Origin: Mollicutes bacterium
Lineage (GTDB): Bacteria; Bacillota_I; Bacilli_A; RF39; UBA660
Direction of reading: 5' to 3'
DNA length: 26,550 bases
NCBI GenBank assembly: GCA_012510695.1
Contig: JAAZHN010000008.1
Coordinates: forward strand, 1-26,550
Positions within the stretch are counted from its first letter, which is position 1. Each line of letters begins with the position of its first letter. A program made the translations under genes and the position numbers. Shown piece after piece: positions 22,918 through 25,749 of this stretch. The notes beneath the pieces are model-generated. The model made no database searches, was not told the origin of the DNA, and saw only the letters and a list, made by a program, of their open reading frames with translations.

Positions 22918-25725
22918 CTATAAAACATTTTTTAGAAATTGTCCAGTATATGACTCTTTGCATTTTATTATTTCTTCGGGAGTACCGGTTGCAATTACTT
23001 CCCCACCACCATCGCCACCTTCAGGACCAAGGTCGATAATGTGGTCAGCAACTTTTATTACATCTAAGTTATGTTCAATAACAATAACTGTATCGCCATT
23101 ATCAACTATTCTATTTAATATAACTAATAATCTTTTAATATCATCGGTATGAAGACCTGTTGTCGGTTCATCTAAAATAAACACACTTTTGCCTGTTGGT
23201 TTTTTTTGTAATTCTTTTGCTAGTTTTACTCTTCCTGCTTCGCCTCCAGATAAAGTTGGAGCACTTTGACCAAGTTCAATATAGGATAATCCCACATCCA
23301 TCATTATTCCTAATTCATATTTTATTCTTGGAATATTTTCAAAAAAATCGTAAGCTTCTTCAACTCGCATTTTTAAAACATCGGCAATATTTTTTTCTTT
23401 AAATTTAATATCTAATGTTTCTTTATTATATTTTTTTCCTCCACAGACATCACAAGGAACATAAACATCTGGCAAAAAATGCATCTCAATTTTTTTAACT
23501 CCGTCTCCCCAACAAGCTTCGCATCTTCCACCTTTAACATTAAAACTGAATCTTCCTTTTTTATACCCTCTGATTTTTGCTTCCTTTGTATTAACAAAAA
23601 CTTCTCTAATCTCATCAAAAACTCCAACATAAGTCGCTGGATTACTTCTTGGGGTTCTACCGATTGGATCTTGACTGATTAAAACAACTTTATCTATGTC
23701 ATCAATTCCTGTTATTTTGTCGTGTTTGCCAACCTCATATTTTGAGTTATAAACACTTTTCATTAAGGATTTATATAAAATCTCATTAACTAAAGAACTC
23801 TTACCAGATCCACTTACACCAGTAACACATATAAATTTACCTCTAGGAAATTCTACATCGATATTTTTTAAATTATTTTCCTTTGCACCCTTAATTTTAA
23901 TTGACTTACCCGAGCCTTTTCTTCTTACTTTAGGAACATCTATTTTTAATTTACCAGATAGGTATTTACCTGTTAGGCTTTCCTCATTTTTCATCACTTC
24001 ATCAGGAGTTCCAACTGCAACTATATAGCCACCATTTTTACCCGCAACTGGGCCAATATCAATTAAGTAGTCTGATGCTAGCATTGTATCATGATCATGT
24101 TCAACAACAATTAAGGTATTGCCAAGATCTCGCATTTCTTTTAATGATTTTATTAATTTATCATTATCTCTTTGATGAAGACCAATGCTTGGTTCATCTA
24201 ATACATATAAAACTCCAGATAATTTACTACCGATTTGAGTGGCTAATCTTATTCTTTGACTCTCTCCACCAGAAAGAGTTCCAGCGTTTCTTGCTAAAGA
24301 AAGGTATCCTAATCCAACATTATCTAAAAAATCTAATCTACTCATTATTTCTTTTAATAAAAGATTGGAAATTCCTCGCTCTTCTTCTGTTAGCTTTAAA
24401 TTATTTAAAAAATTCATTATGTCTTTAATACTCATTAAAGTTAATTCATAAATGTTTTTCTTGTTTATTAAAACAGATAAAACATCATCTTTTAGTCTTG
24501 AACCATGACAAACATCACATTGCATTTCCATCATGTAACCTTCAATCCAATCTCTTATCCAACTGCTTTGAGTCTCAATATATCTTCTTTCTAAATTGTT
24601 AACTATTCCTTCATATGCACTTGTTTGATATCTAACATCACCTTTATTTGAAACATACTTAAATTTTATTTCTTCATTGCTTCCATATAAAATTATGTTT
24701 AATTCTTTATTAGTTAAATTTTTTATTTTTTTAGTTATATCAATATTATAATGTTTACAAACTGTTTCTAGTGCTGTCATATTGGTATTCTGTTCAGGAT
24801 TAAAAGAAAGGATTCCGCCTTCTAAAATTGACTTATTACGATCAGGAATTAATAAATCAATATTTATTTTAGATTTTACTCCTAATCCCTTACATTCTGG
24901 ACAGGCTCCATATGGTGCATTAAATGAAAACATTCTTGGTTCTAAACTAGGTAGTGAAAAATTACATTTCATACAAGCATATTTTTCACTCATCATGATT
25001 TCTTCTTTACCAATTATATTAATTATTACTTTGCCATCAGCTAAATTAGTCGCATTTTCAATTGCTTCAAATAGGCGACTACGATCGCTTTTCTTTAAGA
25101 CTAATCGATCAATTACAACCTCAATATTATCTTTGATATTTTTTTCTAGTGTTATTTCCTCACTTAAGTCTTTTATTTCTCCATTGACTCTTACTCTAGT
25201 AAATCCCTTTTTACTTAAATCCGCAAATAGTTCCTTATGAGTTCCTTTTTCACCACGAATGATAGGTGATAATATTTCAAGTTTTGTTCCTTCATCAAAA
25301 CTTAAAATCTTATTAGTCATTTCTTCAATACTTTGACTTTTAATAGGAATTTTATGAGTAGGACAATGTGGGATACCAATTCTTGAAAATAGTAGTCTTA
25401 AATAATCATAAATCTCTGTTACTGTACCAACTGTACTTCTTGGGTTTTTATTAGTGGATTTTTGATCAATCGCGATGCTCGGACTCAAACCTTCAATTGA
25501 ATCAACATCTGGTTTTTCAGTGCCACCTAAAAATTGCCTAGCATAAGCGCTTAGACTTTCGACATATCTCCTTTGACCTTCAGCATAAATAGTATCAAAA
25601 GCTAAACTGCTTTTTCCTGATCCACTTACTCCAGTCATTACAACTAATTTATTTTTAGGGATTTCTAAATCAATATTTTTTAAATTGTTTTCTCTAGCTC
25701 CCTTAATTATTAATTTATCCTTAAT
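22918..25725 (-). CDS. uvrA: Excinuclease ABC subunit A (935 aa if started at ATT 25725)
   Basis: Two ABC ATPase domains (GVSGSGKSS twice, [16 protein letters not shown], LDEP twice) and Zn-finger CxxC motifs. The conserved N-terminus [22 protein letters not shown] is in frame upstream of the ORF-track Met at 25638. Confidence 0.95.
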   Translation of the reverse strand: [935 protein letters not shown]

Positions 25726-25749
25726 AAATCACTCATTTCGAACATGATT

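Follow-up and report, generated by a model that had tools for sequence, protein, structure and literature searches.

The window analysed here, a 26,550-nucleotide (nt) stretch of DNA comprising positions 1 to 26,550 of contig JAAZHN010000008.1 (Mollicutes bacterium, assembly GCA_012510695.1), carries on its minus strand a uvrA gene that has no canonical initiation codon. The frame occupies 22918..25725, comprises 935 codons counted from an ATT plus the stop, and is otherwise intact; its 5' end reads TAA AAT AAT CAT GTT CGA AAT GAG TGA TTT ATT AAG GAT AAA TTA ATA ATT AAG GGA GCT AGA … ATG. Scored against TIGR00630, the whole frame matches at 1398.6 bits (curated cut-off 729.8) over model positions 1–924 with no internal stops, and residues 2–120, Walker A included, align with the solved UvrA structures 2r6f and 9gxk, so that the first 120 residues are covered almost entirely. 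A full-length match above the cut-off, with the N-terminal segment and Walker A in one frame, places the product in the UvrA family, and the only difference from the family model and from the two solved proteins is the missing canonical initiation codon. The observations of an earlier note on this DNA are borne out in full. Direct reading of the minus strand finds no ATG, GTG or TTG in the uvrA frame between the in-frame TGA upstream and the ATG at 25638; the 29 codons from the ATT at 25725 encode conserved UvrA N-terminus, as the alignment to 2r6f and 9gxk confirms; and the Shine-Dalgarno (SD)-like GAGTGA that the note had placed 3 nt before the ATT is present, as GAGTGAT. The site with which the note had compared this spacing, GGGGTGA-ATT-ATG, also exists, at 5486-5498 on the minus strand (GGGGTGAATTATG). 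The longest uvrA open reading frame (ORF) with an ATG, GTG or TTG start is 22918..25638, of 906 amino acids (aa). A product initiated at that internal ATG would miss 28 conserved residues (2–29 counted from the ATT) of ATP-binding domain I, and the SD scan found no SD k-mer upstream of it; because it lacks an SD and the residues before it align with solved UvrA, it was rejected as a functional start. The canonical start behind an SD that is expected of an expressible uvrA is absent here in both the ORF and the SD scans.

We aligned the uvrA 5' ends of 28 related genomes and added two further same-genus records. In 20 of the 28 relatives the start codon (18 ATG, 2 GTG) is aligned not with the ATT but with the AAG that follows it, and every same-genus locus (L004, L006, L007, L035, L036) starts at this AAG-homologous codon, in contexts that read …gaattgc ATG GAT AAA TTA ATA ATT…, …taatt ATG GAT AGT… and …gtctt ATG GAT AAA…. 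Five relatives, from other genera, families and orders, start one codon upstream at the ATT-homologous position (M-N/S/Q-D-K), and a further three start two codons upstream. The arrangement 'att ATG' also occurs in relatives L006, L009, L018, L020 and L024, and 'att ATG GAT' in the same-genus genome G004 and in several family members. Because several relatives read 'att ATG GAT', the ATT of the window is ordinary inherited spacer sequence. The ancestral start can therefore be aligned in 20 of the 28 relatives, and in the window a non-start codon stands in its place.

Conspecific evidence on uvrA consists of four protein records. P0001 (935 aa, MKDKL…, NCBI nr) is the window's own record with the ATT taken as start, which is an annotation choice and not evidence of use. 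P0002 (934 aa, MDKL…, JGI/IMG and ENA, 2 contigs) is identical to the window protein at 933 of 933 other residues, and P0003 (934 aa, MDKL…, ENA) at 931 of 933. Since both begin MDKL, these protein sequences indicate that the species normally has a canonical start where the window has AAG, and an intact uvrA allele exists in the same species. The fourth record, P0005 (906 aa, ENA), comes from a separate 4135-nt contig; its sequence is that of the window protein beginning at the internal ATG at 25638. A standard gene caller would produce just such a protein for a start-less allele, and the record is consistent with a second assembly in the same state. Pattern scans of metagenome and genome contigs for conspecific DNA returned matches only from other species, all of them with ATG or TTG.

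Because the relatives start at the AAG-homologous codon and the conspecific proteins have Met there, the most parsimonious event would be a single T-to-A transversion at 25721 on the minus strand, converting ATG to AAG. Among its options the earlier note had listed an ATG-to-ATT mutation or a base-call error, to be checked against sister genomes. A canonical start is indeed missing and a mutated start is a valid reading of the locus, but the relatives, P0002 and P0003 place the lost start at the adjacent AAG; the same-genus genomes have a canonical start at the AAG-homologous codon, and the ATT is inherited spacer. The features of the region are collected below.

Features of the uvrA 5' region, with coordinates in the window and the basis of each assignment
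Feature	Coordinates	Strand	Basis
AAG, former start codon	25720..25722	minus	aligned with ATG/GTG in 20 of 28 relatives; Met in P0002 and P0003
ATT, last triplet of the SD-to-start spacer, in frame, possible weak fallback start	25723..25725	minus	direct reading
SD-like GAGTGAT, imperfect GAGGTGAT	25728..25734	minus	direct reading; GTGAT scored as SD
In-frame TGA upstream of uvrA	25731-25729	minus	direct reading
Extended -10 TGgTAAAAT, implying a short 5' untranslated region	25750..25758	minus	direct reading; conservation in relatives
Out-of-frame mini-ORF MFEMSDLLRIN(stop), ATGs at 25745 and 25736, overlapping SD and start	25710..25745	minus	ORF reading
Codon 30, the first canonical ATG in frame, immediately upstream of Walker A	25636..25638	minus	ORF list; SD scan
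Walker A GVSGSGKS, ATP-binding domain I	25609..25632	minus	translation; alignment to solved UvrA

A second lesion of the same pathway lies outside the window. The uvrB gene of the window genome (G000:C92:12870-12872, plus strand; L039:471-473) contains an in-frame TGA at codon 72, after …AHNKTLAGQLY, where the sister genomes have TCG (Ser) or CTT (Leu). Two conspecific UvrB proteins of 656 aa, P0122 and P0121 (on three and two contigs, respectively), have Ser at codon 72; apart from this residue P0122 does not differ from the UvrB of the window genome. A UvrB that ends at residue 71 would leave excision repair non-functional whatever the amount of UvrA. The third gene of the pathway, uvrC, is intact in all six genomes checked across the genus. 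In the sister species G003 (L036:1290-1320, G003:C8) a 7-nt deletion relative to the window shifts the uvrA frame near codon 364, so that uvrA lesions recur within the genus. The uvrB gene of G003 is split across two contigs. The uvrA gene of another sister bin, G002, is likewise divided between two contig ends within its first ~26 codons (the start of contig G002:C42, L005, and the end of contig G002:C7, L035). The two ABC halves form an internal repeat of 77% identity (25500-25900 versus 23790-23902 in the window) that may be the cause, and contig breaks at the uvrA 5' region may be common.

To see how often other genes of the genome carry such lesions, we compared ORFs in both directions by tblastn with the closest sister species, G002 (821 kb), using orthologues of at least 200 aa. 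The window genome is a bin of 169 contigs and 843 kb, with 28% GC and 90% completeness. Interior lesions were found in 3–5 of its 309 orthologues (1–1.6%): a Lys-to-TAA change in a sigma-like gene, a frameshift, another stop and a doubtful case, the fifth match being a gene boundary. The corresponding count in G002 was two frameshifts in 260 orthologues. At a rate of 1–1.6%, one or both of the partner genes examined, uvrB and uvrC, would be hit by chance in ~2–3% of cases. No start-codon loss beyond that of uvrA was found among the 309 orthologues, and a genome-wide habit of ATT-type starts was rejected, as each of the seven flagged starts came from a query ORF extended too far, with a conserved SD and ATG lying further downstream. 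The genes concerned are likely to be disrupted: the sigma-factor-like gene lies on G000:C141 (minus, near reverse-strand index 2826; AINTY(stop)DDKEAKLATF), a frameshift affects a 262-aa orthologue on G000:C33, and a stop interrupts a 681-aa orthologue on G000:C16. A stop-split ORF scan additionally picked out an asparagine-synthetase-like gene on G000:C165, cut by TAA after 182 aa, which is outside the count of 3–5 in 309. We also noticed that among the entries L035, L036 and L037 same-genus bins are publicly named 'uncultured Muribaculaceae bacterium', at odds with their placement among small-genome Bacilli-class relatives, and that a more distant UvrA-bearing bin is publicly named 'uncultured Clostridium sp.'; the Muribaculaceae labels look like unreliable automatic names.

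The signals upstream of uvrA resemble those of its relatives. At the position homologous to the SD the relatives have GAGGTGA, GGGTGA, GAGTGA or AGGTGAT, 3–7 nt before their start, and the extended -10 is kept as TGTGGTAAAAT, TGTGGTATAAT or TGTGCTATAAT, its distance from the start unchanged. A consensus promoter scan, which demands a -35 hexamer, did not call this extended -10. For 201 strong-SD genes of the window genome we measured how far the start lies from the A of GTGA, taking an assumed Bacilli-type tail as the anti-SD because the bin yielded no 16S 3' end. The mode is 4–5 nt, with 3 nt in 25 of the 201 genes (12%) and 6 nt in 26; since the ATT lies at 3 nt and the former ATG at 6 nt, both would be reachable from this SD, in which no compensatory change is visible. 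An SD at a functional distance from the ATT, with no canonical in-frame alternative, is the arrangement expected of AUU-type initiation. Fallback initiation is most plausible at the ATT, from which no more than a little full-length UvrA would be expected: in E. coli reporters AUU, AUA, AUC and CUG gave 0.02–3% of AUG and other tested non-canonical codons 0.01–0.2% (bioRxiv 10.1101/063800). Of 61,358 ancestral AUG starts, only one has switched to AUU and two to CUG (PMC5622118). At its N-terminus the product of the ATT, fMet-Lys-Asp-Lys…, would be exactly as long as the M-X-D-K proteins of the five relatives that start at this position. The two ATGs of the out-of-frame mini-ORF have no SD in the SD scan; a sister genome has a different mini-ORF there, MFEMGELHG(stop), and the mini-ORF is probably a by-product of the SD region 'gaaatgagtga', which is conserved.

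The infC gene of the window genome, which the earlier note had singled out as a place where relaxed start-codon discrimination might be seen, probably does begin with ATA, judging from its sequence context. An SD (GGAGGTG) is followed after 7 nt by ATA GCA AGC (L038:172-195, G000:C164; IASAKDELFINEKIR…), identically in G002 (L061), and an in-frame ATG 18 nt upstream overlaps the SD and has no SD of its own. On the E. coli infC model, this layout would be expected where IF3 discriminates against non-canonical starts; infC is the one exception to be expected in a genome that makes no general use of ATT-type starts.

We consider a recent, strain-level inactivation of nucleotide excision repair, through uvrA ATG to AAG together with the uvrB nonsense codon, to be the probable explanation (roughly 0.7), and thus an early stage of pathway decay and not a regulatory device. 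The T-to-A change at 25721 would have removed the ancestral uvrA ATG in the strain or population behind the assembled genome, very recently, since the promoter, the SD and all 934 following codons are untouched. With the extended -10 and the SD intact, the mRNA is presumably still made and bound by 30S subunits, and full-length UvrA could arise only through inefficient initiation at the AUU 3 nt after the SD, or at the AAG itself. The UvrABC pathway would then most likely be non-functional in this strain, the uvrA and uvrB lesions being early steps of its decay. What we infer from these observations is that a real lineage lies behind the base calls, the extent of initiation at the ATT, and the loss of repair itself. 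Several points weigh against this explanation. The base calls are those of an assembly consensus from a fragmented bin, in which part of the ~1% of lesions could be artefactual. The sample behind P0005 may be that of the window genome, in which case the record would not be independent. The uvrA frame is free of additional lesions, and uvrC as well as an mfd-like gene is undamaged, such that selection on the pathway may not be relaxed. Finally, the ATT lies at a usable SD distance and five of the 28 relatives start at exactly that position, so that functional UvrA from the ATT is possible. A variant in which the AAG allele is real, a trickle of functional UvrA is made from the AUU, and UvrB is lost would make the locus a natural snapshot, inside a single species of uncultured small-genome Bacilli, of the first two mutations in the loss of excision repair; we hold this to be rather unlikely. 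Residual UvrA might in that case be kept for a UvrB-independent role, as is hinted by the retention of uvrA after loss of uvrB and uvrC in clam symbionts.

The doubt that deserves most attention is that the assembly itself is at fault, through a consensus error or a minority variant promoted into the bin, and that the true sequence is ATG at 25722-25720, with a sense codon in uvrB, in which case the lesions would have no biological meaning. The fragmentation and 90% completeness of the bin invite this suspicion, as do the conspecific assemblies that encode a Met-start UvrA and an intact UvrB, and lesions affect ~1% of genes in both the window bin and the sister bin, some of them possibly artefacts. 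Against this, both lesions are substitutions (one a T-to-A transversion), unlike the homopolymer indels typical of consensus errors, P0005 fits the start-less state on another contig, and random errors at ~1% per gene would strike a partner, given uvrA, in only ~2–3% of cases. That one pathway carries two knock-out-type substitutions, neither of them present in conspecific assemblies, is better explained by a real inactivation than by scattered assembly noise, and we judge an error of this kind to be improbable, though by no means negligible.

Much less probable is the proposal of the earlier note that uvrA is tuned down by a non-canonical start, that is, an evolved AUU keeping UvrA low or under IF3 control as in E. 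coli infC and pcnB. It gains some plausibility from the in-frame ATT 3 nt after GAGTGAT, a spacing shared by 12% of strong-SD genes, from the five of 28 relatives with ATG at exactly this position, so that the product would be a normal UvrA, from the 935-aa NCBI nr product that starts at the ATT, and from the ATA that the organism appears to use for infC. Yet the ATT is not conserved as a start codon in orthologues, even within the species: same-genus genomes and conspecific proteins start canonically one codon downstream. The ATT is a pre-existing spacer without a visible compensatory change in the SD, no other gene among the 309 has such a start, and with uvrB broken in the same genome there would be no point in fine-tuning UvrA for excision repair. 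The proposal is thus unsupported. Recoding is the least credible of the explanations we weighed. It would have translation begin at the out-of-frame ATG at 25736 or 25745 and shift frame into uvrA, or have the TGA read as sense under genetic code 4, and it draws on the presence of two ATGs 11 and 20 nt upstream in another frame and of TGA-recoding relatives in the class (G040, with an in-frame TGA). The upstream ATGs lack an SD, however, there is no slippery heptamer at the junction, and the relatives, with an in-frame ATG, need no shift. Code 4 would provide no start in the eight codons that lead back to the next upstream stop, TAA; uvrA has no internal TGA in 935 codons, and the uvrB TGA stands at a Ser/Leu position and not at a Trp. 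Both the frameshift from 25745 or 25736 and the code 4 read-through were accordingly rejected on the SD scan, the reading of the frames and the starts of the relatives.

The locus can be compared with two kinds of known system. The two confirmed E. coli cases of AUU initiation are infC and pcnB (cited in bioRxiv 10.1101/063800), and like them the window uvrA combines an SD-preceded AUU in frame with the lack of any canonical start, and little product would be expected under IF3 discrimination. The non-canonical start of E. coli infC is, in contrast, conserved across species and part of a feedback loop, whereas that of uvrA is confined to one assembly and one consistent record, is not conserved and adjoins a freshly mutated ATG; it is the organism's own infC, with an ATA identical in the sister species, that is of the conserved type. 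The other comparison is with the symbionts of vesicomyid clams. One clade of these has degraded uvrB and uvrC genes together with an intact uvrA, whose expression was undetected in the one species assayed, and the excision-repair genes of the symbionts have been described as 'currently being lost' (PMC5310779). As in that stepwise loss of UvrABC, a point mutation here removes the start of an intact gene, uvrB is hit independently and the uvrA of a sister species is frameshifted. Unlike in the clam symbionts, the lesions here are polymorphic within the species and are single substitutions without further decay, uvrA is among the first genes hit and not the last, and the organism is an uncultured member of the Bacilli class (28% GC, ~0.84 Mb assembled, 90% complete) and not an intracellular symbiont. 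In cultured Mollicutes, Mycoplasma gallisepticum for example, uvrABC is retained and expressed (PMC4007778).

Loss of a start codon is an ordinary event of an already known kind and not a new mechanism. The case is of use as a caution, in that a gene without ATG, GTG or TTG and with an annotated ATT start invites a regulatory story, and a shift of the alignment by one codon reveals that an ATG has mutated. The MKDKL… protein of 935 aa in the public record is thus likely to be a knocked-out allele rescued by annotation. In inventories of metabolism and repair, the window genome should be treated as probably excision-repair deficient, and because of the uvrB nonsense codon it should not be scored as proficient. 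If the lesions are real, they would represent a small, datable loss of a repair pathway segregating within a gut-type species with a reduced genome, of modest interest for the onset of genome reduction.

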